Below are positions 891 to 57,708 of a stretch of DNA of 64,000 bases, in pieces; the stretch's first letter is position 1; each line of letters begins with the position of its first letter. The notes under the pieces were generated by a model. It searched no databases, had not been told where the DNA came from, and worked only from the letters and a program-made list of their open reading frames with translations. The position numbers and the translations under genes were made by a program. The stretch comes from Candidatus Poribacteria bacterium (GTDB lineage Bacteria > Poribacteria > WGA-4E > PCPOR2b). The DNA lies in assembly GCA_022822005.1 (NCBI GenBank), contig JAJECO010000040.1:90-64089 (forward strand). The letters are read 5' to 3'.

Positions 891-3800
891 TTAATCCGTA
901 ATACTGACCTCCGGCAAACCCTCCACAATCTCCACCGTCTCCAAACTGACCGTGATTACCTTCCCGATTAGCTTAACGATGTACTGCGGATCATCCTCGC
1001 GGTTCGGGTCGTTGACGATCCCACTCCGCTTGTCTGTCTTGACGCGATACTGATCTATCACCCATTCCAGCGCTGACCGATTCCCAAGCCGATAATCAAA
1101 CACCTTTGGGGGTATTCCGTCGAGGGTCAGGAAATCGTTGTATGTTATCCCCGTTTTGTCTTTGGACAGTCTCATCTTTTCGACACGCCAATCGAGGGGT
1201 TGTCCCGGTGTTTCGACCTTCTTGATCGGATATTCGTCCGCGTCTTCATAGCCGATGTGGATTTCTCCCAACCTTCTCCCCGCTTTGGCAAATCCCCAAA
1301 AGTCCGGTGTGTATGGCAGGTGCGGTAGGTCCCGCTTGAGGTTCGCCTGATACCGCCTCCGATAGACGGGGTGATGCAGGAGGCCATAGACATAATGGAA
1401 GATATCCCACTTGGTGATTGCCTCATCTCGGTAATGGGACCGGAATTGTGCTAACGCCCAATCGGTGATGTTCTCCCGGCGGTTTGTGCCATCTTCGTCG
1501 TAGGTGTAGAAGGGGAAACATTGATTTTTTTCAAACGCTAAATCTAAGGTAGGAATCCTGTTTGTTATAAGACAACCAAATCCTTTTCTATTACCAACAC
1601 CAGCAATACAAATTACACGATTTTCCATTTCGGTACTAGGCGTAGGAAAAATTCGATACTGTTGATAACGTTCCTCATTCCAGAAGTTATCGAAATAGAG
1701 GTATTTCTGACTGAACGGACGATACAACGCGGTGCGAAAGTGTGAATCTTCATAATTGCTCAATTCCAGTTTTTTCAATGATGCCTTAACCTGACGAGTC
1801 CATTTGATACATGGGTCATCTGTATCAATGATACTTTCAACGGGGATGTTGGGATCATGCCTTTTCCTGCGGTCAACGGTGCTGTTGTATATTTCGATAA
1901 ATGTGTGAACACGTTCTTGTAGCAACTCAAGATTAAACGAGTAAGCCAAAATATCCCTATTCGTGACAACCCCCAAAGAGTAGAGACGAAAAATCGCTTC
2001 TTTGTCTCCATCCTTCACCGCTTTTCTTGTCTTGCTGCCCATCGGGATAAAAGTCTCAAATTCCGGGTGAAGACCTTCTGTCAACCATGTGTAACGTGCG
2101 TCGGGTTGAACGGGCTGCCAATTTATATTGCTAAGGTGTTCGCGTTCACTCAGAAAATCGAATTTTTGTTTTTTGTTCCATAGATCATCAGTGCGATAGT
2201 AAAAAATACGGGTAGGAACAGAATTACCATCGTTTGTAGTAGGGCGATTTATCGCTCGTCCGGTTTTCACAAATAGGTTGATACTCACACCGACCCGTAT
2301 CCCGAACACATTGGCATCCGAGGCTTTTAATCCTTTCCGCGCATTCCCACCCAGGTCCAGAATGTAAATCGCGTCAAAGTCGCCTGCGAGGTGTTTCCGC
2401 ATCCCATCAAACGCCACATCGCCGAGAAAGCTATTGTTCGTTACAAAGGCAACAATCCCTTCTTGTCCAATGCGATCCGATGCCCACCGAATCGCCTTTA
2501 TGTATGGGTCGTAGAGTTTATTTCTGAGCGTCGCTGTGGAGTCTTTTGCATAGGTATCTTTAACCCGTGCATCCATCGTTGGATATTTCCGATTCTTATT
2601 GTTATCATTTTCGTTGATCTGGCCGGCGTTGTAAGGGGGATTGCCGATGACGACAAACATCGGGGCTTTTTTCTGGCCCGCAACGCGGCGGGTGGTTTCA
2701 GGATCAAACAACGACAACTGCCGATCTTCCGCCAACTCAAATGTATCGACGAGGCAGATCCCCTCAAATGGCTGATACCCACCCGTCGCCTCGAAAAACT
2801 CGTGTTCGATATTCAGAGACGCGATGTAGTACGGGAGCAGCATCACCTCATTGCAGTGGAGTTCGGACTGATACTTGTCGGCTAACGCAGTCTTCTGAAT
2901 CTCACGCATTATCCGCACGATAAAATTGCCGGTCCCCACAAACGGATCAATGATATGCACACCGGAATCGGAGAGCGATCGGTTGAATTCTGCCCCTAAA
3001 ATCTCCTCAACACTTCTCACCATGAAATCGACAATCGGCTGCGGCGTGTAGACGATACCGTGTGTGTCCGCAACCTCCACCGAAAAGCCTTGAAAAAACT
3101 GCTCGTAAACGGTGTTGAGAAATCCCTGCTTTTGGGAGAAGTCGCTGATCGTTCTCGCTGTGTCCTCAATGGCAATGTAGAAGCGATCGAGGCTACGGAG
3201 AAAACCGTCACGGCTAAACGACTGGGAGGTGAGCGCGTCTATCACCTTCTCAATCTCATTGGCAATAACATTGCGGCGGGTGAAGTCGGGGTTATCGAAA
3301 ACGGTGCGGAAAATCCGTTCGGTCAAGAGGTGTTGGATCAGCATCTCCTCAACCGCTGCTTCGGAGAGGTCGGGGTTGATTGACTGGCAGCACTTCTCAT
3401 GAAAAGCCCTAAAGGCAGCCGCAAACCGGCGGTTTGTCCCCCGTTCCCTTTCGATGAGTCCTACCAAGCCTTGCCCAAGCGCGGGCACCCTGTCTTTGAA
3501 CTGAGAGACCGCTTCTTCCCATTCGAGGTATGCTTGCGGACGATGGGAAAAGAAGGTTTGGAGTGTCTCGATCAGTTGCGTAGCGTCGGTTAGATCCGCC
3601 TCAAGTGCGGGTTGGTCATTCTGCCAAAGGACAGCGCGTTGTGGAGTTTGAAAGAGGATGTTGTCACGCGGGTAACCCGCCTCAAATTTGTGCTGGACTT
3701 CAACGGGTAGGTTGTCGTGGATATCCTTCGCCTCCCAATAGACGGGAGGCCGTTGGAAACGGTCGATCAACGCGCCGTCAATCACAATTCGCCTGTCTTG

Positions 3801-3983
3801 ACGGTTGATCGGATACTCGGGCACAAGGATCCAATTTAACTTTCGTCCGTAGTGTTGGAGTAGGGATTGGAACGCCGATCGGACAGCGGTTTCGTTTGTA
3901 AAGCCGCGCTGCTCAAATTGATCGAGCGCGCCGTAGTAGTCTTTGATGGGTTGATCTGTGGGTTTGAGATTAAGGACCGTCAT
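891..3983 (-). CDS. Type IIG / MmeI-family restriction-modification enzyme. Single polypeptide: N-terminal PD-ExK endonuclease, N6-adenine methyltransferase, and C-terminal target-recognition region.
   Basis: 1030 aa. N-terminus has D...EAK (VIDGALIDRFQRPPVYWEAKD) like the MmeI nuclease motif. NPPY motif present (VIGNPPYNAGQ), with the AdoMet-binding region upstream. Size matches MmeI-like enzymes. Confidence 0.75.
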   Translation of the reverse strand: MTVLNLKPTDQPIKDYYGALDQFEQRGFTNETAVRSAFQSLLQHYGRKLNWILVPEYPINRQDRRIVIDGALIDRFQRPPVYWEAKDIHDNLPVEVQHKFEAGYPRDNILFQTPQRAVLWQNDQPALEADLTDATQLIETLQTFFSHRPQAYLEWEEAVSQFKDRVPALGQGLVGLIERERGTNRRFAAAFRAFHEKCCQSINPDLSEAAVEEMLIQHLLTERIFRTVFDNPDFTRRNVIANEIEKVIDALTSQSFSRDGFLRSLDRFYIAIEDTARTISDFSQKQGFLNTVYEQFFQGFSVEVADTHGIVYTPQPIVDFMVRSVEEILGAEFNRSLSDSGVHIIDPFVGTGNFIVRIMREIQKTALADKYQSELHCNEVMLLPYYIASLNIEHEFFEATGGYQPFEGICLVDTFELAEDRQLSLFDPETTRRVAGQKKAPMFVVIGNPPYNAGQINENDNNKNRKYPTMDARVKDTYAKDSTATLRNKLYDPYIKAIRWASDRIGQEGIVAFVTNNSFLGDVAFDGMRKHLAGDFDAIYILDLGGNARKGLKASDANVFGIRVGVSINLFVKTGRAINRPTTNDGNSVPTRIFYYRTDDLWNKKQKFDFLSEREHLSNINWQPVQPDARYTWLTEGLHPEFETFIPMGSKTRKAVKDGDKEAIFRLYSLGVVTNRDILAYSFNLELLQERVHTFIEIYNSTVDRRKRHDPNIPVESIIDTDDPCIKWTRQVKASLKKLELSNYEDSHFRTALYRPFSQKYLYFDNFWNEERYQQYRIFPTPSTEMENRVICIAGVGNRKGFGCLITNRIPTLDLAFEKNQCFPFYTYDEDGTNRRENITDWALAQFRSHYRDEAITKWDIFHYVYGLLHHPVYRRRYQANLKRDLPHLPYTPDFWGFAKAGRRLGEIHIGYEDADEYPIKKVETPGQPLDWRVEKMRLSKDKTGITYNDFLTLDGIPPKVFDYRLGNRSALEWVIDQYRVKTDKRSGIVNDPNREDDPQYIVKLIGKVITVSLETVEIVEGLPEVSITD

Positions 3984-4001
3984 TCAAAAAAACTCCGTAT
4001 C

Positions 4002-4799
4002 TTATCCGACCCGTGCACTCAAGCCGCCATCAACGGGCAGAAGCACCCCTGTAATATACCGTGCATCGTCGGACGCCAGGAACGCAGCCGCAGCCGCGAC
4101 ATCCCAGCCGGAGCCCATCTTTTGAAGAAGCGGCACATCCTCGTCCCGTTCCTTACGGATAACGTCGTGGCTTACCCCTCGTTCTGCTACCCGTCGTTCA
4201 ATCGCCATCGGTGTATCCATCAGACCGGGCAAAATCGCATTCACGCGCACCCCATATTCCGCGTTTTCGATGGCGAGGTTCTGTGTCATGGCGTTGATTG
4301 CGGCCTTGCTGGTTTTGTACGCGAGCATGGTCGGTCGCGTACAGAGCGACGCTGTCGAAGAGATATTGATAATCACCCCCGATCCTTGGGCGCGCATCAC
4401 GGGCAGGACATGCTTGATGGTGAGAAACATGCCTTTGAGGTTGATATCCATCAATAGTTCCCAATTCGCCTCAGTCACATCAGCCGTGTCAGCATCACCC
4501 GCTGCGATCCCGACGTTATTATGCAAAACATCTATCCGCCCGTAGCGCGAAACACAGGTTTCGATAATTGCCCGACAATCCTCCTCAACAGTTATGTCCG
4601 CACCGAAAACTGAGGCTTCACCGTCAGTTTCTTCTATCATCCGGGCGGTATCTTCCGCTGAATCGGGTCGCTTGTCAACAAGAAGCACCCGCGCCCCCTT
4701 CTTTGCGAAACAAATCGCGGTTGCCCTGCCGTTCCCGATGGTTTCTCCCGGCGTCTGACCGGCACCAACGACGATGGCGACTTTACCACTGAGCGACAT
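4002..4799 (-). CDS. SDR family NAD(P)-dependent oxidoreductase.
   Basis: MSLSGKVAIVVGAGQTPGETIG Rossmann motif and YxxxK region. Start moved to the internal ATG at 4799, which has an AAGGAGGAG SD. Sits 18 nt upstream of the RM gene. Confidence 0.85.
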   Translation of the reverse strand: MSLSGKVAIVVGAGQTPGETIGNGRATAICFAKKGARVLLVDKRPDSAEDTARMIEETDGEASVFGADITVEEDCRAIIETCVSRYGRIDVLHNNVGIAAGDADTADVTEANWELLMDINLKGMFLTIKHVLPVMRAQGSGVIINISSTASLCTRPTMLAYKTSKAAINAMTQNLAIENAEYGVRVNAILPGLMDTPMAIERRVAERGVSHDVIRKERDEDVPLLQKMGSGWDVAAAAAFLASDDARYITGVLLPVDGGLSARVG

Positions 4800-4815
4800 A
4801 TACAGTCTCCTTCCT

Positions 4816-4915
4816 TCGCTCCAGAGAAGCGATATGTCTGTAGAATCCCAACGCGTCCAAGCCACGCGCTCCAGTTTTGAATCCCGATTTATCGGGGAGG
4901 AGCGCAATGTGTATA
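4816..4915. repeat. Family A repeat copy (hairpin + AATGTG modules). The second hairpin loop carries a nested family B CCCGAT-TTAT-CGGG hairpin.
   Basis: CGCTCCAGAGAAGCGATATGTCTGTAGAA ... GGAGCGCAATGTG. Lies 17 nt upstream of the SDR start. Confidence 0.55.
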
Positions 4916-4990
4916 ACAGATTTCAAGGCACTTGCGTCATTCCGACGCTTATGGAATCGTGGATGCGCGGTTTTAACAGTCTTAAGGTTG

Positions 4991-5611
4991 TTAAGGCTCC
5001 GTGCGGTTTGGGCCTGCCTCAGTACCAACGAACGGTGCACTCTCACCGACGGGCACCGGCACCTCAAATACATTCAGCGTCATTGACACGAGTGTGTAGT
5101 AACCGAGCAGGATCACCAACTCCGTAACCCCCGCCTCATCGAGCAGTTCAACCGCCTCATCGTATAGATGGTCTGACACACGATGTTGGTCGAGCAATTC
5201 ACGGGCAAAGTTATAGACCACCATCTCGGTTGGATTGGATAACTCTGGGGCTGTTTCCGCCTTGACGCTTTCGATTATCCGATCGTCCAAGCCTTCACTT
5301 CTTGCAATTCTCTCATGCGCCCACCATTCATACTGTGCCTTCCATTTGGCAGCAACGATCAGGATTGCGAGCTCTCGCAGCTGCGGCGGGAGGGCACTTT
5401 CAAAACGGACGGTCTCGCCGAGTCGTTGTGCTGCATCGCCCAACACCGGACTCCTGAGCCACGGATTGAATGGACCGCTCATCCCGCCTTCTGAGTTGAG
5501 GAGATCTTCGGGAGCCCGTCCCTCGCCACGCTTGCCGCCGGTTATACTTTCGAAGAGGCGTTGTTGCGCTTCGGTAAAGTTTTCGGGTGTGATGTATGAT
5601 ATTCGACTCAT
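4991..5611 (-). CDS. Carboxymuconolactone decarboxylase (AhpD-like) family protein.
   Basis: 206 aa, all-alpha. CMD-family-like core (ELAILIVAAKWKAQYEWWAHERIA), but it lacks the usual Cys pair. Confidence 0.6.
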   Translation of the reverse strand: MSRISYITPENFTEAQQRLFESITGGKRGEGRAPEDLLNSEGGMSGPFNPWLRSPVLGDAAQRLGETVRFESALPPQLRELAILIVAAKWKAQYEWWAHERIARSEGLDDRIIESVKAETAPELSNPTEMVVYNFARELLDQHRVSDHLYDEAVELLDEAGVTELVILLGYYTLVSMTLNVFEVPVPVGESAPFVGTEAGPNRTEP

Positions 5612-5852
5612 TTCTCAATTCCTTTTTGCTCACATTTATAGCACATAACCATCTGAATAATTTCGATGAACTGATGCGAAGAACGGCGGAATAACTCTAT
5701 CACGCTCCCTGTGCGGAGTCAAGCGCAAAGTGGCAAGGGCACCCGCAAGGGGTGCCCCTACAGAGATCCGTTTCTCAGTGTATCGTTCTCTAAGTTTTTC
5801 ATGGTTTCCCACCTGCATTTGTGATAACATCTGAGATGATAAAAAAATCTAA

Positions 5853-5866
5853 TGCGTAAGACCTGT
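5853..5866 (+). repeat. Solo terminal repeat of the family F MITE (TGCGTAAGACCTG).
   Basis: Matches the right TIR GTGCGTAAGTCCT of the complete elements at 17911-18067 and 61654-61804. Confidence 0.4.
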
Positions 5867-5883
5867 GCACATTTTCATAGTTT

Positions 5884-5962
5884 ATTATGGTGAATTCTAA
5901 AAATAAATAGACACTTTCACCCCCGGTAGATGCGGTTTCCAATCGCACCGGTTTGGTGTGTC
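5884..5962 (-). repeat. Family D ~85-bp intergenic element, minus orientation.
   Basis: ATTATGGTGAATTCTAAAAATAAATAGACACTTTC...CCGGTAGATGCGG... is the reverse complement of the consensus seen at 7700-7765, 41101-41182, 56078-56175 and 57626-57708. Confidence 0.65.
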
Positions 5963-6017
5963 CCATTAATTCTACGGTCCACTATAATACGAGTCACACG
6001 AAAAACGTGGGCAGCCT

Positions 6018-6160
6018 TCAGCCCCAGAGGGGCGACATGTTTATAGAACGCAAGGCAACCAAATATCCAAAGCCCCAGAGGGGCGACATGTGAAAAGTAG
6101 TAGGCATATCCCCTTAAATATCGCCTGTCCCGATCTAGCGGGGCGGAGCGCTATGTGCCA
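6018..6160. repeat. Family A-like repeat: three GC hairpins (GCCCC-AGA-GGGGC / GCGGGGCGGAGCGC), each followed by (A/C)ATGTG.
   Basis: GCCCCAGAGGGGCGACATGT appears twice, 50 bp apart. The third module is GGGGCGGAGCGCTATGTG. Confidence 0.55.
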
Positions 6161-6254
6161 ACTTGTCTGAAGCGCAGATTAACAGATTACGCCGATAAAA
6201 CGAAAGGCTCATGTTAGGGGTGAGTCTCATAGTTTATATCTGAAGGAGAACATA

Positions 6255-7313
6255 ATGAAAACTTACCGAGTGGCGATTGTGGGACTGGGGCGTATGGGCA
6301 GTACACTTGACCAGTCGATTGCGTCTGCATCGCATGCAAGCGAACGGCTTGAAGTGGTAGCAGGGGCAGAGACAATGCCAGAACGACGGACAGCGTTCCA
6401 AGAGAAATGGGGCGTTGAAACAGTTTATGAAGACTACCAAGAGATGATTGAGAAGGAGCGGCCGGATATGGTGGGGATATGTACGACAGCGACCGGTTTG
6501 CCCAAACCGGGCAATCGTGCCCCATCAACATCGTTCCGGGACGACGCACACGCGGATATGGCGGTCTATGCGGCGAATGCCGGTGTGCCAATGCTCTTTG
6601 TGGAGAAGGCGATATCCTGTTCCGTGGAAAAGGCTGATGAAGTCCTTGAAGCCTGCCGCAAACACGGTACTATACTCAACACCGGCGTACTGAGACGGTT
6701 CAGCGGACGATATAAACGGATACGGGAGATGATCGCACGGGGCGATATCGGTGAACCGCAATCAGCGGTGGTCTATGGTGCTGCCAGCTTGATGCACGTA
6801 CACATCCACTGGATGGACACCGTCTCCTACCTGCTGGGCGATCCAGAGATTGCAGCGGTACGGGGGGATCTACTGCCCAGAAGTATAAAGGTTAAAGACA
6901 ACCGACTTGAGGAAGACCCGCAGGGACTTTTTCAGATCGCCTTCGCCAACGGAATCGAGGCATGGTCAGTGCCGGACGGGGGACGGGAGTATGAGATAGT
7001 CGGAACAGAAGGGACTATCCGATCGATGTGGGATGGCGCAGCGGTAACTTTCCGGAAGCTGAATGGGGCAGATGATTGGCCCCTACAATGGGAGGGAGAG
7101 ACATTTCCAGAGGAAACTCCGGTCAGCACAGTTGTTACCTGTTTAGAAGATTTGGTAGAGTCGCATGAATCGGGACGGCAGTCAATTGGCAATATTGAGG
7201 TCACACATCCCATCACAGAGGCGTGTATCACTGTGGCGGAAAGCCATCGACAGGGCGGTCGGTGGGTTGATTTACCGATGCAGAATCGGGACTTGTATGT
7301 GTTTCATGTGTAG
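6255..7313 (+). CDS. Gfo/Idh/MocA family oxidoreductase.
   Basis: MKTYRVAIVGLGRMGS N-terminal Rossmann motif. 352 aa. GAAGGAGAA SD. Confidence 0.85.
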   Translation: MKTYRVAIVGLGRMGSTLDQSIASASHASERLEVVAGAETMPERRTAFQEKWGVETVYEDYQEMIEKERPDMVGICTTATGLPKPGNRAPSTSFRDDAHADMAVYAANAGVPMLFVEKAISCSVEKADEVLEACRKHGTILNTGVLRRFSGRYKRIREMIARGDIGEPQSAVVYGAASLMHVHIHWMDTVSYLLGDPEIAAVRGDLLPRSIKVKDNRLEEDPQGLFQIAFANGIEAWSVPDGGREYEIVGTEGTIRSMWDGAAVTFRKLNGADDWPLQWEGETFPEETPVSTVVTCLEDLVESHESGRQSIGNIEVTHPITEACITVAESHRQGGRWVDLPMQNRDLYVFHV

Positions 7314-7404
7314 AATGTGTAATTTTATAGTAAAGTTTAAAATTATGGTGAACAATATAAATATGTAGACGTTCATCAATAGTGCCCATTATCGAAGCCT
7401 CATG

Positions 7405-7580
7405 AAGTCCCCCTGAGTTTCCCAAGTCCCCCTGACAAGTGGAACATCCCGATTTATCGGGGGCGGGATTTAGGGGATTGGTTGTGCATTGAACAAGCTT
7501 CCCCCCTGACAAGTCCCGATTTATCATTTCCCCCTGACAAGGGGGGCTAGGGGGGTTGGGGATTTAGGGGGTTGGTTGTG
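7405..7580. repeat. Family C composite: three CCCCCTGACAAG(T/G)GGGG hairpins with G-runs (GGGGATTTAGGGGGTTGG), interleaved with family B CCCGATTTATCGGG hairpins.
   Basis: Read directly. Same modules at 117-146 and 37345-37465. Confidence 0.6.
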
Positions 7581-7583
7581 TAT

Positions 7584-7765
7584 CGAAAGTGTATAAGTAA
7601 TTATAGAATTTACCATAATTGGACCCTCTGTACCGGCGAGGTTTCCTAATCGCACCGCATCCCGATGAATCGGGATAAATCGGGATCCCGACCTGTCGGG
7701 AGAAACAGCGCCTACCAAACATGGGGGGACAAGAGTGTTTATTTATTTTTAGAATTCACCATAAT
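7584..7765 (+). repeat. Family D composite. A 3'-end fragment (7584-7619) plus a full-length-like copy (7700-7765) ending TTTTTAGAATTCACCATAAT, with family B hairpin clusters between them.
   Basis: CGAAAGTGTATAAGTAATTATAGAATTTACCATAAT and AGAGTGTTTATTTATTTTTAGAATTCACCATAAT both match the D 3' end. Confidence 0.6.
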
Positions 7766-7811
7766 ATGAATTAACCCCCGATGCTGAACAACCATGAATC
7801 GGAGAAACAGT

Positions 7812-9464
7812 ATGGCTTACCGCGACATCTTAGAAAAAATTCGACTTGCTTTTCCCCAACCGGTATCCGATGCGATACATGACTCGTACTTTGTGCATTC
7901 TATTATGCGCGCCTTGGATCAGGTTGATGGGCTAAAAACACACCTGCCGATGCTCGGTGACATCGTCTCCGGTGATTTCGAGAAAGCCAGAGAAGCGACG
8001 TTGCCGGATACAATGGCTTCAATTGAGGATGTCACGGCTGACCTTGTGAGTTACCTCCGAGGAATGACCCTCTTTGGCCATCCCCGGACGCAACAGAACG
8101 TTATTCCTCCACCGACAATCCCAAGTGTGATTGGGGTACTCCTCGCCTCTCTGTATAATCCAAATCTGGTTTGGGATGAATATAGCCGCCTGGTGGCGTT
8201 GGCTGAAGTTGAGGCGGTCGCCATCGCATCGCAATTGATTGGATACGACCCGGAGCAGGCGAGCGGTGTGTTCACTTTCGGGGGCACCGCAACGACACTC
8301 TACGGCGTGAAGTTGGGGCTTGAAAAGGCGTGTCCGGGAACGATGCAGAACGGTACGCCTGAAGACGCCCTCGTGTTCGTATCAGATGCAGGTCACTACT
8401 GTGCTGCTAATATTGTCGGTTGGCTCGGCATAGGAACGAACAACCTGATTACGATTCCGACAACAGTTGAAAACGAAATGGATCTCGTGCAACTTGAGGA
8501 GGAAGCGCGGGGGGCATTGGGGAGCGGAAAAAAGATTGCCGCCATCATTGCGACCTTGGGCACTACCGACGCGTTCGGGTTGGACGATTTGGAGCACATT
8601 GCGGCGTTACGAGACACGCTCGTCGATGAATTCCAACTTGACTATCGGCCACACATCCACGCAGATGCAGCTATTGGGTGGGCTTGGTCTGTGTTCAACG
8701 ACTACGATTTTGAAAATAACCCGCTTGGGTTTCGCCCACGTACTGTCCGCGCATTGGCAGGGGCATCCCGGCGCATACGGCATTTATCCCTAGCAGATTC
8801 TGTTGGCATTGACTTTCACAAGACCGGTTTTACACCTTATATCTCCAGTCTTGTCCTCTTTCAAAACCGAACGGATCTGGAATTGGTAAAACGTCAACCA
8901 GAGCAGATGCCGTATCTCTATCAGTTTGGGGAACATCGTCCGGGAATGTATACGCTTGAAACTTCCAGGGCAGGGACAGGTCCCCTTGCTGCGCTCGCCA
9001 ATTTTCGGTTGTTCGGCGAGCAGGGGTTGCGAGTCATCCTCGGTCACATCGTTGAAATGACACAACTCCTGCGCGAACATCTGGAAGGACGCGAAGGCAC
9101 AACTGTGCTGAACCGCGAGAATTTCGGAACCGTCACGCTCTTCCGCGCCTATCCAGTCGGCGTCGATACCTTCTCAATTAAGCGACATGAATTCGAGGAT
9201 GCTGCCTACCGCGATAGCTTGCTCAAACACAATGACTACAACCGAGAAATTTCTGAATATGTCCATTCGGAGGCGATGGAGGGCAGAGGGGTTGTGATTT
9301 CGATCACAGACTGCTATCGGCGAACTCAATACGGCGAACCGATTGTTGCTTTGAAATCTTTCATCTTATCCCCATTTGTCGATGAAACCGATGTCGAAAT
9401 GGTTGTTTCAAAGGTACTGGAAGCGAGGGGAAAGGTGAGTGGCTCATGTCAAAGGGAGGCGTAA
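7812..9464 (+). CDS. Pyridoxal-phosphate-dependent group II decarboxylase (aromatic-amino-acid / glutamate decarboxylase family).
   Basis: HADAAIGWAW and the PLP-lysine motif IDFHKTGFTPY. About 550 aa. Start placed at ATG 7812, with GGAGAAAC SD inside the ORF-track extension. Confidence 0.8.
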   Translation: MAYRDILEKIRLAFPQPVSDAIHDSYFVHSIMRALDQVDGLKTHLPMLGDIVSGDFEKAREATLPDTMASIEDVTADLVSYLRGMTLFGHPRTQQNVIPPPTIPSVIGVLLASLYNPNLVWDEYSRLVALAEVEAVAIASQLIGYDPEQASGVFTFGGTATTLYGVKLGLEKACPGTMQNGTPEDALVFVSDAGHYCAANIVGWLGIGTNNLITIPTTVENEMDLVQLEEEARGALGSGKKIAAIIATLGTTDAFGLDDLEHIAALRDTLVDEFQLDYRPHIHADAAIGWAWSVFNDYDFENNPLGFRPRTVRALAGASRRIRHLSLADSVGIDFHKTGFTPYISSLVLFQNRTDLELVKRQPEQMPYLYQFGEHRPGMYTLETSRAGTGPLAALANFRLFGEQGLRVILGHIVEMTQLLREHLEGREGTTVLNRENFGTVTLFRAYPVGVDTFSIKRHEFEDAAYRDSLLKHNDYNREISEYVHSEAMEGRGVVISITDCYRRTQYGEPIVALKSFILSPFVDETDVEMVVSKVLEARGKVSGSCQREA

Positions 9465-9467
9465 AAC

Positions 9468-11411
9468 GTGATGTCCCGATCCGATTGGTCCCGACAAGTG
9501 GGGACATTAATTGCGGTAGTTTTAATCAACGGTTTCAGTTTGTTTTATTTTAATGTGGCGTCCGCTGATATTACCATTGATGGCGAGACTGTCCACGTCG
9601 AAACTGACAGCTACGCTGTCCAATTTGATAGGGGTGTTATTACCTATATTCACAACAAGTATACCAATAAGACCTATACAGTATCCGCCGATCAGGGTCC
9701 ATCGGGCTGGACTGGAATATGGTTCAATCAGAATTGGTGGGAAGCAGGGAATATTTCGACCAGTTGGGCAGAACTAATCTCCGCAACGCAGATAGATCCA
9801 CAAAGCGCCGAACTCCTGTTCCGCCATGAGGGAACGGATATTCGCCTCTCTATTGCTGTTGATCCGATGACCGACGATCTGTTGATTGACATGGAAGGGG
9901 TGTCCGATACTCGCGGGATCGTCGGGATGCAGTGGGGGATAAGTTACTTGGATATTGATAACCTATCGGTTATCATTCCAAAAGATGGTGGACGCATCTT
10001 TGATGGTACAAGTCCCGCTACCTATCACGACTATTTCTATCCTAGTACTGATTGGGAAGCCCAACTCGTCATTCTTCAAGGGGAACGTGGCGGGTTTTAC
10101 GTCAGAAACACAGACAATACACTCCAATTTAAGCGGCTTATCGGCGATCGGCCGGACGACGGATTGGCACTTAACTTTGGGACGTACAATCAAGCCCCGC
10201 TCGATTCGCATACATCAGGGCATTCAACGCTGTGGCGATTCAATACCTATACTGGCGATTGGCGGGTGCCTGCTCGTATCTATAGAGACTGGATGGAACA
10301 GGCGTTCCAGCCCCGCCGGTTATCCGATATTCCGTGGACTCAGGATATCACTTTAGTGGTAGGCAGTGCGAAAGGAGGCCCCAGCACAAATTCTGCCCCC
10401 CTACTTGACAGACTATCCGAGATTGTGGACCCCACGAAAACGTTAATCTTATTGGGCTCATGGGCGGAGGGTGGAGAGTGGTGGTCTGAGGAACTTCACG
10501 CACACATGCCAGACTTTATCCCAAAGTCAGATATGGGAACTTTCATGGAGGCGGCACATCAGCACGGGTTTCGCGTGATTCTTTTCACCATCGCGCTTGG
10601 TTTTTCGCCCGCTCATCCGCTCTATCCTCATTTCCGTCAGTATCAAATTAGAGATACCTGGACAGGAGAAATCATAGAGAACCCACCGCCTGCCCACCCA
10701 GGTGAGCATCTTGTTGAAACTATTAGTCCTGCGAGTTCAGAATATAGAAAACTAATTGTCGAAAGACTAAAGGTGGTATGGGAAGAATATGGTGTTGACG
10801 GATTTTTCATTGACGCCAATTTCATGGCATTTAACGATGGGAATGGATTGATTGATGGGTTAAATTGGTCACAAGGGATAGCGTTACTGCACAAGGAGTT
10901 AGCAGAAGCGATGCCGGGCATCGTGTTGGGAGGAGAACGACTTCATGAAGCAACATTTACCTATGAAAGTTTCGCACAACGTCCGTTACTTCCTAACCCA
11001 GCAATGAGACCGCATCGGATTAGCACATTTCTGTTTTCCCCTTTTGTACATAATATTGGCTATGCACCGCAAGCCCCGGTTGAAGATCCAGTCTATAATG
11101 ATGAGTTTCTGCGCTTTAGTAAGATTTGGGACATTATCCCAACTGCTATTATTTGGGGCCCAGAGCATCTTGGCGAACAATTTGTGGAGATGAATAAATA
11201 CCTTGAAGCGGCGCGAGTGTGGCAGCCTCAATATGGGTTAAACGGGGATGTCAACAGCGATGGGGTTATTAATATTCTGGATTTAACCCTTGTTGGGCAA
11301 AACGTTGGGATAATGCCTCTCAGCCACATACAAGCAGATATCAATGGCGATGGATTGGTTAATGTGTTAGATCTGATATTGGTTTCAAATATGTTTGATG
11401 GAGCACGTTAG
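9468..11411 (+). CDS. Secreted glycoside-hydrolase-like TIM-barrel protein with a C-terminal dockerin (type I, two Ca-binding repeats). Paralog 1 of 3.
   Basis: SPI-type signal peptide (VASA|DIT). Core contains YGVDGFFIDANF, resembling the GVDGFRLDA/GVDYLKYDNC catalytic-strand motifs of GH13/GH27-like enzymes. C-terminus has GDVNSDGVINILDL...ADINGDGLVNVLDL dockerin repeats. Confidence 0.65.
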   Translation: MMSRSDWSRQVGTLIAVVLINGFSLFYFNVASADITIDGETVHVETDSYAVQFDRGVITYIHNKYTNKTYTVSADQGPSGWTGIWFNQNWWEAGNISTSWAELISATQIDPQSAELLFRHEGTDIRLSIAVDPMTDDLLIDMEGVSDTRGIVGMQWGISYLDIDNLSVIIPKDGGRIFDGTSPATYHDYFYPSTDWEAQLVILQGERGGFYVRNTDNTLQFKRLIGDRPDDGLALNFGTYNQAPLDSHTSGHSTLWRFNTYTGDWRVPARIYRDWMEQAFQPRRLSDIPWTQDITLVVGSAKGGPSTNSAPLLDRLSEIVDPTKTLILLGSWAEGGEWWSEELHAHMPDFIPKSDMGTFMEAAHQHGFRVILFTIALGFSPAHPLYPHFRQYQIRDTWTGEIIENPPPAHPGEHLVETISPASSEYRKLIVERLKVVWEEYGVDGFFIDANFMAFNDGNGLIDGLNWSQGIALLHKELAEAMPGIVLGGERLHEATFTYESFAQRPLLPNPAMRPHRISTFLFSPFVHNIGYAPQAPVEDPVYNDEFLRFSKIWDIIPTAIIWGPEHLGEQFVEMNKYLEAARVWQPQYGLNGDVNSDGVINILDLTLVGQNVGIMPLSHIQADINGDGLVNVLDLILVSNMFDGAR

Positions 11412-11446
11412 GCTATTGATATGAAAGTCTATTTTGGAGGTGTGCT

Positions 11447-13372
11447 ATGAACCGATTTGTGTTTTTAGCAAAATTCACTTTATTGATTCTGTTGCTTGCG
11501 TGTTCTGTCGATGCCGCTATCACTGTTGAGGGTGAAACTGTCCATGTTGAAACGGATAGCTACGCCGTCCGCTTCGATAAGGGCGTGATTGCCCATATCC
11601 ATAATAGGTTGACCGATAAAACTTACACCGTAGGTGAGGGCAGAGAGGGTTGGAGTGGAATATTATACAATCGATATTATTGGGATGACGCAAATATCGA
11701 CACTCTTTGGGCTACCTTCGTTTCTGCGACAGTGATTGATCCATTCCGTGTGGTGCTTGTGTTCCGCCAAGAGGATGCCGAGGTTCGGCTCTTTATTTCC
11801 ATTGACCGTGCCACTGACGATATGCTGATCAATATCGAGGGTGAGTCCGACACCCCCGGTGTGATCGGGATGCAGTGGGGGTGTAGTTATTTGGATATTG
11901 AAAACCTATCGTTTATCCTTCCAATGTACAACGGCCGTGTGGTCGATGGCACGCATGAGGATTTCTACCACAGCCGCGACTATCCCCATTCCGAGTGGGA
12001 AGCGCAATTGGTTATTGCTCAAGGTGAAGATGGTGGATTTTACGTGAGAAATACAGATAATACCTTTCAGTTTAAGCGGTTCATCCTCAGCCGATACAAA
12101 GACGAAGCAGCCACCCTTAATTTTACGACATACAATCAAGCACCTTTTGAGGCACACACCCGTGGTAAATCCGATTTGTGGCGTTTCAATACTTATCGGG
12201 GCGATTGGCATGTGCCTGCCCGCATCTATAGGGACTGGATGGAACAGGCCTTCGATGCTAGGCGGCTATCAGATATGCCGGCGTGGGTTCAAGATATTAG
12301 CTTATTTGTCAGTAGTGCAAACTTACAGGATCCTGGGAGTATCGCTCTGCTTGATAGATTAGCAGAACTCACAGATCCGACAAGAACGGTTGTGATGTTA
12401 GCATCATGGGCTGATGGGGGAGAGTGGTGGTCTGATGAACTTGGCTCCCATCATCCTGATTATATTCCAAAGCCAGGGCTGAAGAATTTCGTTGAAACGG
12501 CACATCGGTACGGGTTTAAAGTCGTGCCTTGGATGATCGCCTGCGCTTTTTCAGCAGATCACCCGCTCTACCCTCATTTCCAGCAATATCAGTGGCGAGA
12601 TACCTGGACGGGAGAATTGACTGGCGAGTGTTGGGCACCGCCCTTGGATCCAGCATGTTATCACCCATCTCACGACCGTGCCGCTTTTATTAATCCTGCG
12701 AGTTCAGAATATAGAGATCTAATCGTTCAAGAACTAAAAGCGGTATGGGAGGAATATGGTGTTGATGGGTTCTTTGTTGATGCCAGTTGGTTTGTGATTA
12801 ACGATGCGAATGGGTTGATTGATGGATTAAATATGGGGCAGGGCATGGATTTGCTACATCGAGAGTTGGCAGAGGCAATGCCGGGTATCATATTAGGTGG
12901 AGAACGGCTTAATGAAGCGTGCTTTGCCCGTAAGAGTTTCGCTCAACGTCCACGGATTACGGACGGCATTGAACCGCATCCAATAAGTTCATTCTTGTTT
13001 TCTCCGTTTACATACGCCATTGGCTTTCCAAAATATAATCCAGACGATCGTCCGGATCTTCATCAACAGGACCAGCAATACTACGAGGTTTGGGATGTTG
13101 TTCCAACCATTAAGGTTTCGTTTACTGGACAACTAGAGGATCACGATGTAGAAATACACAAAATCATTGCAAGCGCACAGAATTGGCAACCTGATTTTGA
13201 GTTTGTCGATGGCGATCTCAATAATGATGCAGTGGTTAATATCCTTGATTTGATCATTGTCGCGAACGATTTAAGACAGGAAATACCCGCTAATTCAAAG
13301 TCAGATGTTAATAGAGACGGACGGGTGGATATACTGGATCTTACTCTTATTTCACAATATATGAGTCAATGA
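11447..13372 (+). CDS. Secreted GH-like TIM-barrel lipoprotein with C-terminal dockerin. Paralog 2 of 3.
   Basis: About 60% identical to paralog 1. N-terminus LLILLLACSVDA carries lipobox LLAC. Dockerin repeats DGDLNNDAVVNILDL / DVNRDGRVDILDL. GGAGGTG SD. Confidence 0.65.
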   Translation: MNRFVFLAKFTLLILLLACSVDAAITVEGETVHVETDSYAVRFDKGVIAHIHNRLTDKTYTVGEGREGWSGILYNRYYWDDANIDTLWATFVSATVIDPFRVVLVFRQEDAEVRLFISIDRATDDMLINIEGESDTPGVIGMQWGCSYLDIENLSFILPMYNGRVVDGTHEDFYHSRDYPHSEWEAQLVIAQGEDGGFYVRNTDNTFQFKRFILSRYKDEAATLNFTTYNQAPFEAHTRGKSDLWRFNTYRGDWHVPARIYRDWMEQAFDARRLSDMPAWVQDISLFVSSANLQDPGSIALLDRLAELTDPTRTVVMLASWADGGEWWSDELGSHHPDYIPKPGLKNFVETAHRYGFKVVPWMIACAFSADHPLYPHFQQYQWRDTWTGELTGECWAPPLDPACYHPSHDRAAFINPASSEYRDLIVQELKAVWEEYGVDGFFVDASWFVINDANGLIDGLNMGQGMDLLHRELAEAMPGIILGGERLNEACFARKSFAQRPRITDGIEPHPISSFLFSPFTYAIGFPKYNPDDRPDLHQQDQQYYEVWDVVPTIKVSFTGQLEDHDVEIHKIIASAQNWQPDFEFVDGDLNNDAVVNILDLIIVANDLRQEIPANSKSDVNRDGRVDILDLTLISQYMSQ

Positions 13373-13433
13373 AAGTCTATGACGTCAACAGGGCAGATAA
13401 AGAAGATAGGAATTACTTGCTTGGAGGTGCGCT

Positions 13434-37328: not shown

Positions 37329-37344
37329 TTCCCTTCTTACAGCC

Positions 37345-37485
37345 AACCCCCTACCCCCCTCAACTCCCCTGACAAGAATTTCCCCCCTGACAAGGGGGGC
37401 TAGGGGGGTAGGGGATCTTCTCCCTTGTCTTTCCCCTCTTATCAGAGGGGTTCAGGGGGACTTATGAACCAGCTACGTAAGTCCT
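37345..37485. repeat. Family C repeat (CCCCCCTGACAAGGGGGGCTAGGGGGGTAGGGGAT) plus a minimal family F hairpin (GGACTTATGAACCAGCTACGTAAGTCC).
   Basis: Read directly. Lies between the FG-GAP gene and ackA. Confidence 0.55.
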
Positions 37486-38702: not shown

Positions 38703-38929
38703 TGCGTAAAATTTTCTCGCTGATGTTAAGAAAACGCCCAACAGAAACCGATTTTTGTAAGGGTTAGGTTACCCAATCCGTTGGTCGAGGGGAACCTTGT
38801 CTCTACGGCAGGGAGCCCCGGTCCCCTCGATAAATCCCCGATGAATCGGGACAAGCGGGATGCAAGCACCTACGATTTTACTTCGCATTTTGCAATTTCT
38901 TTTTACATAAGCCTTCTCAATAATAGCAG

Positions 38930-39925: not shown

Positions 39926-39992
39926 TTCCTATGCCTCCTTTGTTTTTAACGCGGTCTTTTATCCTTAAACACTATTCTCTAAATAATAGCAG

Positions 39993-40988: not shown

Positions 40989-41100
40989 CCGTTATGCCTC
41001 CTCTGTTGTCAAATCGGTTTATATTTCCTTGGAGTGGATAGAGATCGGCTTGTGTTGGCAACCTTTTTCCAATTATAGTAGATCTTAGAATTAATGAGAC

Positions 41101-41182
41101 ACTCCAAACCGGTGCGGGGAGAAAACGCACCTACCGGGAGACGAAAGTGTTTATTTTTAGAATTCACCATAAGGTGACAACT
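41101..41182 (+). repeat. Family D ~85-bp element, plus orientation, solo copy.
   Basis: TAATGAGACACTCCAAACCGGTGCGGGGAGAAAACGCACCTACCGGGAGACGAAAGTGTTTATTTTTAGAATTCACCATAA. Confidence 0.65.
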
Positions 41183-41267
41183 CGGTTTATTATCGCATGA
41201 AGATCTCGCCTCTTCGTTCGCGTTTATGACCCAATCTCAACGCACGCTGTTTTCTCGATAATGGTAA

Positions 41268-56046: not shown

Positions 56047-56077
56047 CCATCGAAGCGTGAAACATAATTATAGTGGA

Positions 56078-56175: not shown

Positions 56176-56220
56176 ATAGCTCCACCCAACTATCCAATTA
56201 AAAAAGAAATAGGAGAACCG

Positions 56221-57600
56221 ATGGCGAATTGGGAAAATTATCTGGAAAGCAACAAGTCTCGATTCTTGGATGAGATGCTGGACTTTATCCGCATTCCGAG
56301 CATCTCCGCACTATCCGAACACGCCGGCGATATTCAGCGCGCCGGTGAATGGGTCGCAGATCGTTTGAACGCCGCTGGCATCGAAGGGGTCCGCATCCTG
56401 CCGACCAATGGACCTCCGGTGGTCTACGGCGAATGGCTACACGCTCCGGACAAACCGACTATCTTGATCTATGGCCACTTTGATACACAGCCTGTTGATC
56501 CGGTAGACCTGTGGTCTGACCCGCCCTTTGAGCCAGTTGTGCGGGACGGGCGGGTGTACGCACGTGGCTCCTCAGATGACAAAGGGAACATGCTTATCCC
56601 CATCCTCGCCACCGAAGCGATGCTCAAGGCAGAGGGGAGCCTACCGGTCAACCTGAAATTCTTCTTTGAAGGTGAGGAGGAGATCGGCAGTGGCCATCTC
56701 CCGGCAACGATAGATTCCCATAAGGAATTATTGGCTTGTAATCTGGTGGTCAGCGCCGACGGGTTGCAGTGGCGTGAGGACCAACCCTCACTGCTGGTTG
56801 GGTTCAAGGGGCTCTGCGCACTACAGATTGATGTGGTGGGACCCAATGTAGACCTGCATTCTGGAATCTATGGTGGCACTGTCCAAAACCCAATTCACGC
56901 CCTCGTGCGTCTCTTAGACTCTATGCGCAGTCCGGCGGGCGATGTGTTAGTCGAAGGTTTCTATGACGATGTTGTCCCGCTCTCCGCTGCGGATCGAGAG
57001 CAGATTGCAGCTATCGGTCACAACGAAACAGAGTATAGGGAGCAACTCGGAGTGGATCGCCTCTTCGGTGAGCCCGGCTATACGGCACTCGAACGAGCAT
57101 GGGTTCGCCCGACGCTGGAGCTGAATGGCATCTGGGGTGGTTTTCAGGGCGAGGGCAGCAAAACTGTCATTCCGAGTGAAGCCCACGCGAAAATCACTTG
57201 CCGCTTGGTGCCGGACCAGAATCCTAACAAGATTTTGGAGCAGCTCTCCGCTCACATCGAGAAATATACGCCGCCGGGGGTAAAGATAAGCACCACGCCA
57301 AAAGCTGCCCCCTCCCCGGCATACCGAATACCGGACGATCATCCGGGGAATCAGGCGGCTTACGCTGTGCTCGAAGAGGTGTACGGAAAAACGCCGTACT
57401 ATACCCGACTGGGCGGTACCCTTCCGGTATGCCGTCTCTTCTTGGATAAATTAGATGTCTATACAGTGACCTTCGCCTTCGGCTTGGAGGATGAAAATGC
57501 GCATGCCCCGGACGAGTTTTTCCGGATCAGCAGCTTTGAGCAGGGGCAGAAAGCCTATTGCAAACTGTTAGAGCGACTCAGTGAACAGGCAGGGCTGTAA
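56221..57600 (+). CDS. M20 family metallopeptidase (dipeptidase / acetylornithine-deacetylase-like).
   Basis: HFDTQP...GSSDDKG...EGEEEIGS...ADG metal-binding motifs. About 460 aa. AGGAGAA SD. Confidence 0.85.
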   Translation: MANWENYLESNKSRFLDEMLDFIRIPSISALSEHAGDIQRAGEWVADRLNAAGIEGVRILPTNGPPVVYGEWLHAPDKPTILIYGHFDTQPVDPVDLWSDPPFEPVVRDGRVYARGSSDDKGNMLIPILATEAMLKAEGSLPVNLKFFFEGEEEIGSGHLPATIDSHKELLACNLVVSADGLQWREDQPSLLVGFKGLCALQIDVVGPNVDLHSGIYGGTVQNPIHALVRLLDSMRSPAGDVLVEGFYDDVVPLSAADREQIAAIGHNETEYREQLGVDRLFGEPGYTALERAWVRPTLELNGIWGGFQGEGSKTVIPSEAHAKITCRLVPDQNPNKILEQLSAHIEKYTPPGVKISTTPKAAPSPAYRIPDDHPGNQAAYAVLEEVYGKTPYYTRLGGTLPVCRLFLDKLDVYTVTFAFGLEDENAHAPDEFFRISSFEQGQKAYCKLLERLSEQAGL

Positions 57601-57625
57601 AGCGCGGCATCTATAGTGAACCTTT

Positions 57626-57708
57626 AATGAGACACTCCAAACCGGCGCGGTTAGGAAACCGCCCCTACCGGAGGCGAAAGTGTTATCTGTTTTTAGAATT
57701 CACCATAG
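57626..57708 (+). repeat. Family D ~85-bp element, plus orientation, downstream of the M20 gene. It forms an inverted pair with 56078-56175.
   Basis: TAATGAGACACTCCAAACCGGCGCGGTTAGGAAACCGCCCCTACCGGAGGCGAAAGTGTTATCTGTTTTTAGAATTCACCATAG. Confidence 0.65.

Follow-up and report, generated by a model that had tools for sequence, protein, structure and literature searches.

Family D repeats of Poribacteria are very probably MITEs derived from an IS630-family insertion sequence

We analyzed a 64,000-nt stretch of Candidatus Poribacteria DNA (contig JAJECO010000040.1; hereafter the window), in which copies of a short repeat, family D, flank two genes, one for a Gfo/Idh/MocA oxidoreductase and the other for an M20 dipeptidase. 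A scan for TTTTAGAATTCACCATA with ≤3 mismatches returned six matches, at 5886-5902 (-), 7601-7617 (+), 7747-7763 (+), 41155-41171 (+), 56069-56085 (-) and 57691-57707 (+), against 0.19 expected, and none of 100 shuffles reached six; the repeat described in an earlier note on this DNA is therefore real. That note had also placed a (-) copy upstream and a (+) copy downstream of a single gene at two places, with the ...TAGAATTCACCATAA ends pointing outward, and this arrangement was confirmed at both. The features of the two places and of a further copy are as follows.

5886..5986 (-): simple copy (probable MITE), 101 nt with both TA duplications; right end at the low coordinate
6255..7313 (+): Gfo/Idh/MocA oxidoreductase gene ("bracketed"), Pfam PF01408 on the called gene
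7325..7342 (+): apparent left-end variant fragment (TTATAGTAAAGTTTAAAA), cut off at the start of the next element
7343..7620 (+): variant element, bounded left and right by a right-end-type terminus (TTATGGTGAACAATATAAATATGTAGAC ... GAAAGTGTATAAGTAATTATAGAATTTACCATAA); inverted repeat I3
7621..7763 (+): D copy without the outer ~22 nt of the left end; adjoins the 7343-7620 element
41074..41171 (+): simple copy (probable MITE), 98 nt with TA duplications; target TTAA
56069..56195 (-): older compound copy in the PhyH-M20 spacer, end at ~56195; carries hairpin module A (inverted) and module B; left end decayed
56221..57600 (+): M20 dipeptidase gene (second "bracketed" gene); 459-aa orthologs, 83-93% identity, conserved synteny
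57602..57707 (+): simple copy (probable MITE) with a ~7-nt deletion in the left end, 106 nt with TA duplications; target CTAG

Scanning GTDB genomes for the exact 17-mer gave at least 114 loci, and the matches listed include 99 loci of 8 kb from ~25 Poribacteria assemblies. The counts below come from the loci listed, in which ~135 right ends were sampled. Full family D elements are non-coding and 100-400 nt long, with a length mode of 103-105 nt among these loci. They begin with the conserved left end TTATAGTRGATCTTAGAATTAATGAGACAC... and finish with the conserved right end ...GAAAGTGTCTATTTATTTTTAGAATTCACCATAA, and conservation has sharp limits at TTAT... and ...ATAA. The two ends form imperfect 31-nt inverted repeats, in which 22-23 of 31 positions are equal when the left end is compared with the reverse-complemented right end. 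For 107 of the 135 right ends among the loci listed, a left end lies no more than 450 nt away, and the 40-340 nt between the ends holds a cargo that varies from element to element and consists of small GC-rich hairpins. The copies reported in the earlier note thus exist, but their limits had been under-called and the left end had been missed. Of 108 elements, 79 carry hairpin module A, 38 module B, 29 module C, 9 module D and 4 module E; modules are seen in either orientation and as tandem repeats, and module C (CCCGATnnATCGGG), at least, also exists outside D elements.

The window copies illustrate this anatomy. The one at 5886..5986 lies in a TTAA target, as read from the flanking T5885 and A5987, carries one GGTGCGATTGGAAACCGCATC hairpin as its cargo and shares 92% identity with the family consensus. 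On the other side of the Gfo/Idh/MocA gene, 7325..7342 may be a variant left end, judging by its resemblance to that of locus L101 (TTATAGTAAAGTTTAGAATTGATTGGACAC), which was read by eye rather than aligned. Inside the element at 7343..7620 lie CCCCCTGACAAGGGGG / GGGATTTAGGGGG repeats along with a CCCGATTTATCGGG palindrome, and the same compound recurs in L102, where the flank downstream of it is different. Module B (GAAACAGCGCCTACCAAACATGGGG) and CCCGAT..ATCGGG palindromes make up the cargo of 7621..7763, and the copy at 41074..41171 sits between two tandem paralogous minus-strand genes. In single-strand folding the compound copy at 56069-56192 scored z = -3.7 against shuffles, and the simple copies, with z from -0.9 to -1.3, folded no more stably than shuffles. 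A scan of the whole window at Rfam gathering scores returned no match.

The mobility of family D was read from orthologous sites with and without a copy, in comparisons between species 10-25% apart in DNA. Four empty sites were clean: ctacTTAAttat in L035 (filled in L114), ccaaTTAAagg in L052 (filled in the window at 41073-41172), aatTTAAcgt in L008 (filled in L031 and L076) and ttaCTAAgtt in L083 (filled in L085). Each reads TTAA or CTAA where the filled site reads YTA[...]TAA. L088 (filled) and L121/L124 (empty) form a further orthologous pair, and the junction is unresolvable to the base in L088 versus L124 and in window 57602 versus L126. Presence/absence polymorphism at orthologous sites holds for four of the five window copies. 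Filled sites in general read YTA[...]TAR, indicating that a single TA is duplicated on insertion; the target-site duplications on which the earlier note had made mobility depend are therefore present. Targets inferred from 119 two-ended elements among the loci listed were most often TTAA (46), TTAG (29) and CTAA (28), and 105 of the 119 (88%) were flanked Y-TA...TA-R, against an 18% background for YTAR. The variable spacers beside insertions were also seen to coincide with differences in gene content between species.

No transposase copy lies within the 64-kb window. Elsewhere we found a 909-nt IS in two copies that have no mismatches between them and different flanks (L075 1603-2511 and L072 444-1352; genome OY762722.1). 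Both copies have D-type ends and are flanked C-TA...TA-A, and the IS termini match D over ~21 nt at the left end and ~30 nt at the right end. Its ORFs matched PF01710 HTH_Tnp_IS630 (E 1.5e-23), PF13358 DDE_3 (E 5e-33) and NF033545 'IS630 family transposase' (105.8 bits, cutoff 100). They lie in two overlapping frames with an A-run, and by our own reading of OrfB the D-to-E spacing is 35 residues. IS copies with the same termini also occur in three further assemblies, of which no fewer than two are named Poribacteria MAGs, and 314 relatives of the transposase were retrieved at E ≤ 1e-30, many on contigs of ~909 nt. Among the ~135 sampled right ends there were only two intact IS copies and one remnant. 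Three other long spans were considered as autonomous elements or as spans between termini and were rejected: L043 6743-7791, a 1050-nt block at the position of a D copy in L016, is an ordinary gene of 319 aa without transposase features; L057 5980-7033 is an ordinary gene between separate elements; and L096 5888-7428 combines an ordinary gene with a decayed piece of a transposase. A literature search found no paper joining Poribacteria and IS630, and the papers retrieved with 'MITE' and Poribacteria seem, by their titles and the starts of their abstracts, to be off-topic.

We propose that family D is very probably a MITE, its members being non-autonomous derivatives of the 909-nt IS630-family insertion sequence. 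Of the IS, a D element retains the termini alone, with a left end of ~21 nt (TATRGTAGATYTTAGAATTA) and a right end of ~30 nt (TGTCTATWTATTTTTAGAATTCACCATAA), and 40-340 nt of hairpin modules take the place of the transposase gene. The IS encodes a DDE transposase, N-terminally HTH_Tnp_IS630 and with DDE_3 as its catalytic domain, which is probably made through a -1 frameshift on an A8 run, with a predicted fused product of ~276-279 aa, and which would bind the D ends in trans. Mobilization would then follow a cut-and-paste route, in which D is excised and pasted into YTAR sites with duplication of the central TA. AT-rich intergenic spacers receive copies in either orientation. Since simple D copies share a mutual identity of only ~85%, a large part of the family may be ancient and by now immobile.

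The bracketing of two genes could also be taken to mean that inverted D copies with their right ends outward form a composite transposon or cassette, which moves the Gfo/Idh/MocA and M20 genes as cargo. Both outer bracket ends are right-type and make a better inverted pair than a left end with a right end, and short elements with two right-type ends do exist (7343-7620 in the window, and eight pairs, most of them 118-153 nt apart), so a transposase could in principle use such pairs. The reading is nevertheless largely refuted: L121, L122-124, L125 and L126 are missing D on one or both sides of the gene concerned, yet synteny around the two genes is conserved in these relatives. Gfo/Idh/MocA orthologs with 84-91% amino acid identity have adh_short and CMD as left neighbors with or without D, and every close homolog context that was fetched has the same left neighbors; a metagenome scan for relatives of this gene added only four loci, none useful for junctions. 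The site of the 5886..5986 copy is empty in L121 and in L122-124, the latter having a downstream spacer of 40 nt with no room for D. L088 carries an inverted 156-nt copy at that site plus a second D, and the 7621..7763 copy is missing from its orthologous downstream spacer, which has no D. An inversion of D in situ between the window and L088 was considered and rejected: the whole element is inverted, down to every diagnostic position of its ends, and the copies differ in cargo, being 105 and 156 nt long. The opposite orientations are better explained by replacement or by two insertions that hit the same TA independently. Around the M20 gene the order RraA-RimK-PhyH-M20-adh_short is kept, with D on neither side in L125 and upstream only in L126. 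The upstream copy is old and decayed; its spacer holds an intact 103-nt D copy in the same orientation in L126 and none in L125 or L127/128. The downstream copy is lineage-specific: in L125 and L126 the M20-adh_short spacer is 48 nt long and contains no D, and in the window it measures 142 nt. In the contexts compared, the bracketed segments therefore do not behave as single units. Nor are outward pairs enriched, as the preference for inverted pairs raised in that note would have it. Among 25 pairs of neighboring copies 401-3000 nt apart in the 99 Poribacteria 8-kb loci, 18 were direct, 5 inward and 2 outward. The predominance of direct orientation is itself unpredicted by random insertion. 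Two outward pairs out of two has a probability of 1/16 under random orientation, for a pattern chosen after the fact. We consider a cassette extremely unlikely. The earlier proposal of MITE-like repeats served by a transposase in trans is upheld in its TIRs, TA duplications, empty sites and matching IS630-family IS, but its single-gene mobilizable cassettes are not. The Gfo/Idh/MocA gene 6255..7313 and the M20 gene 56221..57600 belong to no mobile unit and are vertically inherited, and the two brackets would be chance neighbors, formed by four independent insertions, an old and decayed one among them, on either side of these genes.

Two further readings were weighed against a MITE of IS630 type. 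In one, D is a selected regulatory module and not primarily mobile, its right end TTTATTTTTAGAATTCACCATAAT (-10-like TAGAAT/CATAAT) serving as an outward promoter and its hairpin as a terminator, insulator or protein-binding site, so that the copies mark a regulon. Two window copies do stop shortly before gene starts (7621..7763 lies 30 nt ahead of the Pyridoxal_deC gene at 7794, and 57602..57707 lies 35 nt ahead of the adh_short gene at 57743), several copies elsewhere end 15-40 nt ahead of an RBS and ATG, and a promoter scan gives GGGACA-18-TAGAAT at 7726-7755. The right end of the parent IS, moreover, lies just upstream of the transposase start and probably holds an inward-facing promoter. 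An outward promoter was nonetheless rejected as a property of the family, since in our census, which used gene calls by a crude longest-ORF rule, right ends were followed by a same-strand gene 60 times and by a convergent one 54 times, with similar distance distributions. Of the 135 copies among the loci listed, 122 are intergenic, and the spacers show no orientation preference relative to genes (co-directional spacers with D sense 35 and antisense 38, divergent 24, convergent 9). The earlier note's suggestion of a terminator, insulator or protein-binding module is accordingly not supported as the primary nature of D. The T-run stands ~18 nt from the stem rather than following it as in an intrinsic terminator, and a terminator scan of 4800-8200 found no site in the D copies. 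The same genes also have orthologous spacers without D, and an exact 17-mer shared by many species is, along with the TA duplications and the transposase partner, what a transposon shows; a regulatory module is thus very unlikely. The other reading, for which we see an almost negligible chance, takes the GC hairpins as the core of a REP/BIME-like element moved by a RAYT (Y1 transposase), or of a single-strand derivative of IS200/IS605 type. It would account for a cargo of short GC-rich palindromes in variable mosaics, for the same hairpin in both orientations within compound copies and for the shared orientation of neighboring copies. However, it is the AT-rich termini that are conserved and not the hairpins, 29 of 108 elements being without hairpin A and 7 without any of the five modules, and inverted-repeat ends with TA duplication match a DDE-type IS. 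A replication-linked orientation, as for IS200/IS605 or REP, was likewise unsupported: D strand agreed with the sign of local GC skew, a weak proxy when taken over 8 kb, in only 44 of 75 cases, and D positions in nine complete chromosomes formed no clean two-block pattern.

MITEs related to the IS630 family and the Tc1-mariner superfamily include Stowaway-type elements in eukaryotes and Nezha in cyanobacteria. The Poribacteria IS resembles the IS630 family in its DDE_3 and HTH_Tnp_IS630 domains, in its overlapping frames with an A-run, in its D-to-E spacing and in TA duplication, which in the family occurs in NTAN targets, but with 909 nt it is one of the smaller members and it prefers YTAR, mostly TTAA. 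A close parallel is RUP of Streptococcus pneumoniae, a 107-bp MITE for which IS630-Spn1 was proposed as mobilizer (Oggioni & Claverys 1999, as reviewed in PMC2229807). Like D, RUP is a non-coding element of ~105 nt that is mostly intergenic, present in many copies and inserted at TA, with TIRs resembling an IS630-family IS of the same organisms. Sequence and phylum differ, and the RUP TIR is 9 bp and contiguous whereas the D termini are conserved over ~21-31 nt; D differs further in a wide length range due to swappable hairpin cargo and in ends conserved across many species-level genomes. The same review (PMC2229807) describes Correia (NEMIS) elements of Neisseria, with TA termini and target duplication, length classes of 107 and 155 bp set by an internal block, and outward promoter-like and RNA-structure effects. 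D shares the TA duplication, at least two length classes and a definition by filled versus empty sites. The review does not name Correia among elements whose TIRs match an IS, RUP being the stated exception (PMC2229807), whereas D has an IS630-family match. By analogy with Correia, promoter or RNA-structure effects of D copies are a possibility.

The D family adds another IS630-type MITE, comparable to RUP and Correia elements, and leaves the current understanding of MITEs unchanged. D termini might in addition shuttle other small repeats. Modules moving by their own mechanism, or right-end/right-end pairs carrying genes, would make this a two-level mobile system, which we regard as unlikely; if true, it would spread structured DNA/RNA modules, or genes, through Poribacteria genomes. 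Insertions between operon genes, such as the one that widens the M20/adh_short spacer from 48 to 142 nt, may alter expression. D copies also yield spurious ORFs, as where an ATG at 56146 within a D copy lengthens the M20 ORF by 25 codons, and they can disrupt short-read assemblies. D elements occupy many Poribacteria spacers, and with the parent IS named, both it and they can now be masked and counted. A MITE with a known parent is rare, and the pair described here, with clear ends, a YTAR target and a candidate transposase, comes from an uncultured phylum of sponge symbionts.

The 17-nt 3' end of family D (TTTTAGAATTCACCATA) was matched six times in the window at up to three mismatches, on the minus strand at 5886 and 56069 and on the plus strand at 7601, 7747, 41155 and 57691. 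Since only 0.19 matches were expected from a dinucleotide-preserving shuffle, the repeat family described in the earlier note is real. Sequence reading and alignment of the copies also bore out its description of two genes, each with a minus-strand copy upstream and a plus-strand copy downstream and the ...TAGAATTCACCATAA ends pointing outward. The extent given there for D covered the inner and 3' parts of the repeat and missed the conserved 5' end of every complete copy.

Family D copies and the genes that they bracket
5886-5986, minus strand, D copy upstream of the Gfo/Idh/MocA gene
6255-7313, Gfo/Idh/MocA gene
7621-7763, plus strand, D copy downstream of the Gfo/Idh/MocA gene
41074-41171, plus strand, D copy outside the brackets
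56069-56195, minus strand, D copy upstream of the M20 peptidase gene
56221-57600, M20 peptidase gene
57602-57707, plus strand, D copy downstream of the M20 peptidase gene

An exact scan of GTDB (one genome per species) found the 17-mer at 114 or more loci; among the matches listed, 99 came from about 25 Candidatus Poribacteria assemblies, and those outside Poribacteria were single chance matches in unrelated taxa. The ENA sponge-metagenome scaffold KELL22-1 scaffold_34 is identical to the window. The anatomy of the element was examined with 135 right ends (at most two mismatches) from the listed Poribacteria loci and the window. Family D consists of a conserved left end (TTATAGTRGATCTTAGAATTAATGAGACACTCCAAAC), a variable middle and a conserved right end (GCGAAAGTGTCTATTTATTTTTAGAATTCACCATAA), with a left end no more than 450 nt from the right end in 107 of the 135 cases and a sharp loss of conservation outside TTAT... 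and ...ATAA. Elements are 100 to about 400 nt long, most often 103-105. The first 31 nt of the left end match the reverse complement of the last 31 nt at 22-23 positions, so the terminal inverted repeats are long but imperfect, and the differences between left and right are fixed. Simple copies (n = 26) show a mean pairwise identity of 85% and an identity to consensus of 91%. Between the ends lie small GC-rich modules in mosaic arrangement.

Modules in the middle of family D, counted over 108 elements
Module A, GGTGCGGTTnGAAACCGCACC, 79 elements
Module B, GGCGCAGTTGGAAACAGCGCC, 38 elements
Module C, CCCGATnnATCGGG, 29 elements
Module D, CCCCCTTATCAGGGGG, 9 elements
Module E, GGCACACGGCGTGTGCC, 4 elements

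The earlier note had named empty sites in related genomes as a check. When the 200-nt flanks of each element were compared with all other loci (L-numbers denote loci from other assemblies, mostly Poribacteria), orthologous places were found with the element in one genome and none in another.

Filled sites and their empty counterparts
L114 (129 nt), empty in L035, ctacTTAAttat
Window 41073-41172, empty in L052, ccaaTTAAagg
L031 (300 nt) and L076 (220 nt), empty in L008, aatTTAAcgt
L085 (134 nt), empty in L083, ttaCTAAgtt

The filled sites all read Y-TA-[element]-TA-R; each empty site holds a single YTAR target, one TA of which is duplicated on insertion. The targets inferred for 119 elements with both termini included TTAA (46), TTAG (29) and CTAA (28), and YTAR accounted for 88% of D targets versus 18% of all NTAN in the same DNA. 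That TTAG and its complement CTAA are about equally frequent agrees with insertion in both orientations. At L098 4237-4264, a 28-nt solo remnant (CTATAGTAGATTTTAGAATTCACCATAG) is left of the full 110-nt element present at the orthologous L012 site (minus strand, 3879-3988), the stretch between two direct TTTTAGAATT boxes, one in the left and one in the right end, having been deleted.

A transposase acting on the D ends had also been suggested, and an IS630-family element with such ends was found by searching for opening and closing D termini separated by more than 450 nt. Genome OY762722.1 carries two 909-nt copies (L075 1603-2511 and L072 444-1352) with no mismatches between them and different flanks, each flanked C-TA...TA-A. 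Their ends, TACTATGGTAGATTTTAGAATTAC... and ...TGTCTATATATTTTTAGAATTCACCATAA, equal those of D for about 21 nt at the left and about 30 nt at the right. Two overlapping ORFs lie on the strand opposite to the D orientation. The 112-aa ORF matches PF01710 HTH_Tnp_IS630 (E 1.5e-23); the 188-aa ORF matches PF13358 DDE_3 (E 5e-33) and passes the NCBIfam equivalog NF033545 'IS630 family transposase' (105.8 bits, cutoff 100). By our reading, 35 residues separate the second D (IMDNA) from E (NPIEH) in OrfB. Because the frames overlap at an A8 run (CGAAAAAAAAGCTG) and transposase relatives of 276-279 aa hold both domains in a single ORF, it is likely that a -1 frameshift joins the two. In the IS, the first ATG of the transposase ORF follows 33 nt downstream of the right end, and the -10-like boxes in this end are probably left over from the promoter region of the transposase. 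At E <= 1e-30 the transposase has 314 relatives; many of these lie on contigs of about 909 nt, as expected when a multi-copy IS is assembled. The same termini are found on the IS copies L131-L133 (89% aa) and L134 (73% aa), which come from three other assemblies, two or more of which are named Poribacteria MAGs. L096 retains a decayed transposase fragment, and the 64-kb window has no transposase copy of this IS.

The two brackets had been read as mobilisable single-gene cassettes, and the relatives decide against this. L125 (93% aa) and L126 (91% aa) share the gene order RraA-RimK-PhyH-M20-adh_short with the window. In L125 the spacers on the two sides of M20, 82 and 48 nt long, are free of D. 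In L126 an intact 103-nt minus-strand D occupies the place of the window's decayed compound copy upstream of M20, and the 48-nt downstream spacer has none; L127/128 (83% aa) have no D at the M20 locus. For Gfo, L088 (OZ220744.1, about 87% DNA identity) is collinear with window 4002-9453 and has two plus-strand D copies in the upstream spacer and none in the downstream one. One of them (4129-4284, 156 nt) sits at the junction cacattttcataagt|T, the site of the window's minus-strand 101-nt copy. This upstream junction is empty (...cacattttcatagtttatacgtggaggaagatacaATG) in L121 (91% aa) and L122-124 (84% aa), which likewise have adh_short and CMD on the left of Gfo; 40 nt lie between the Gfo stop and the following gene in L122-124. 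The same genes thus stand in conserved order without D on one or both sides (L121, L122-124, L125, L126), the very result that the earlier note had set against its proposal. On this comparison, the bracketed genes have been inherited vertically and the four flanking D copies have arisen separately.

The spacing and orientation of neighbouring copies point the same way. Among 25 pairs of neighbouring copies 401-3000 nt apart (L001-L114), 18 were direct, 5 inward and only 2 outward as in the brackets, with gaps of 551 and 655 nt, neither gene-sized, so D has no preference for inverted pairs around genes. The shared orientation of neighbours was more frequent than chance, with no link to gene strand over the 135 copies and no clear link to GC skew (44 of 75 agree). 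D had alternatively been proposed as a protein-binding or insulator/terminator module. By a simple longest-ORF gene call, which makes the numbers approximate, 122 of 135 copies were intergenic; co-directional spacers held 35 sense and 38 antisense copies, divergent spacers 24 and convergent ones 9. The gene ahead of the right end shared the strand of the element in 60 cases and was convergent in 54, and the distances were similarly distributed in both groups. Random strand and similar distances speak against the family as a whole having been selected as promoters or terminators.

An 11-nt direct repeat, TCATAGTTTAT (5876-5886 and 6227-6237), flanks a 351-nt block made of the minus-strand D copy at 5886-5986 and 240 nt of other repeats, and its second copy leads on into the sequence that L121/L124 have at the empty, ancestral site. 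A simple TA insertion would not produce this arrangement at 5876-6237; another insertion event or a duplication of local DNA may lie behind it. At 7325-7763, a left-end fragment, a two-right-ended variant and a D missing part of its left end are piled up; the compound recurs in L102 with a different downstream flank, suggesting that compounds may move as units. Left of adh_short, a 1030-aa gene (891-3983, minus strand) encodes a restriction-modification enzyme of Type ISP (ISP_coupler, N6_Mtase, Type_ISP_C); in L121 this position (1-732) is taken by an IS whose transposase is DDE_Tnp_1/DUF4096. The region downstream of Gfo is a hot spot of gene content. Three tandem paralogues (9454-15354) separate the Pyridoxal_deC and DegT genes, which adjoin in L088, where all three are missing; L121 lacks Pyridoxal_deC as well, and L122-124 have a NIPSNAP gene instead. 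Another tandem array (38900-42300), built of 132-141-nt internal repeats (families D1, D2, D10), has one MITE between its second and third genes; a similar array in L052 is without that copy.

Tandem paralogues in the window
9468-11411, about 640 aa, weak DUF6259 and Dockerin_1 matches in L119
11447-13372, about 640 aa
13434-15356, about 640 aa
38930-39925, minus strand, about 330 aa
39993-40988, minus strand, about 330 aa
41268-42254, minus strand, about 330 aa

Other repeats were noticed as well. A second short family with the core CAGCCCCAGAGGGGCGACATGT (GC palindrome plus ATGT) occurs at 316-528, 4814-4891 and 6018-6092, at L088 3454-3494 and in many other loci; it is common in Poribacteria spacers, where tandem pairs spaced by about 50-135 nt are frequent. 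Six copies of the 14-nt palindrome CCCGATWWATCGGG (4883, 7448, 7661, 18005, 38837, 45570) stand against 0.07 expected; they lie both inside D cargo and alone in other spacers, and the palindrome may be an independent small repeat. G/C-run repeats (CCCCCTGACAAGGGGGG, GGGGATTTAGGGGGTTGG) at 7400-7580 and 37339-37414 form the inverted pairs I8 and I14 and recur as cargo module D in other genomes. Near its start, a 2170-aa ORF (25780-32292) contains glycine-rich repeats made of GGY/GGF units (family D13, 26376-26666).

From the observed termini, target, polymorphism and partner IS, we propose that a full-length IS copy would make an IS630-family transposase that recognises the 21-30-nt termini common to D, cuts out the short element and places it in a YTAR target, where TA is duplicated. 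Transposase binding, cut-and-paste chemistry and the frameshift are modelled here on established IS630/Tc1-mariner behaviour. Our literature search found no paper linking Poribacteria with IS630 or describing such MITEs. Among described elements, RUP of S. pneumoniae comes closest: it is a MITE of 107 bp that inserts at TA and has TIRs similar to IS630-Spn1 (PMC2229807); RUP and D are both MITEs of about 105 nt with IS630-like TIRs and TA insertion. Correia/NEMIS elements share with D their TA termini and length classes differing by an internal block (PMC2229807). What sets D apart is its sequence, its host phylum, the greater length of its conserved termini, its modular cargo and the fact that it is conserved in many species. 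Individual copies may affect neighbouring genes, a putative example being the M20-adh_short spacer, widened from 48 to 142 nt. The longest M20 ORF in the window starts at an ATG at 56146 inside a D copy, and the 459-aa orthologues place the true start at 56221; MITE insertions can thus mislead start-codon calls (56146-56220).
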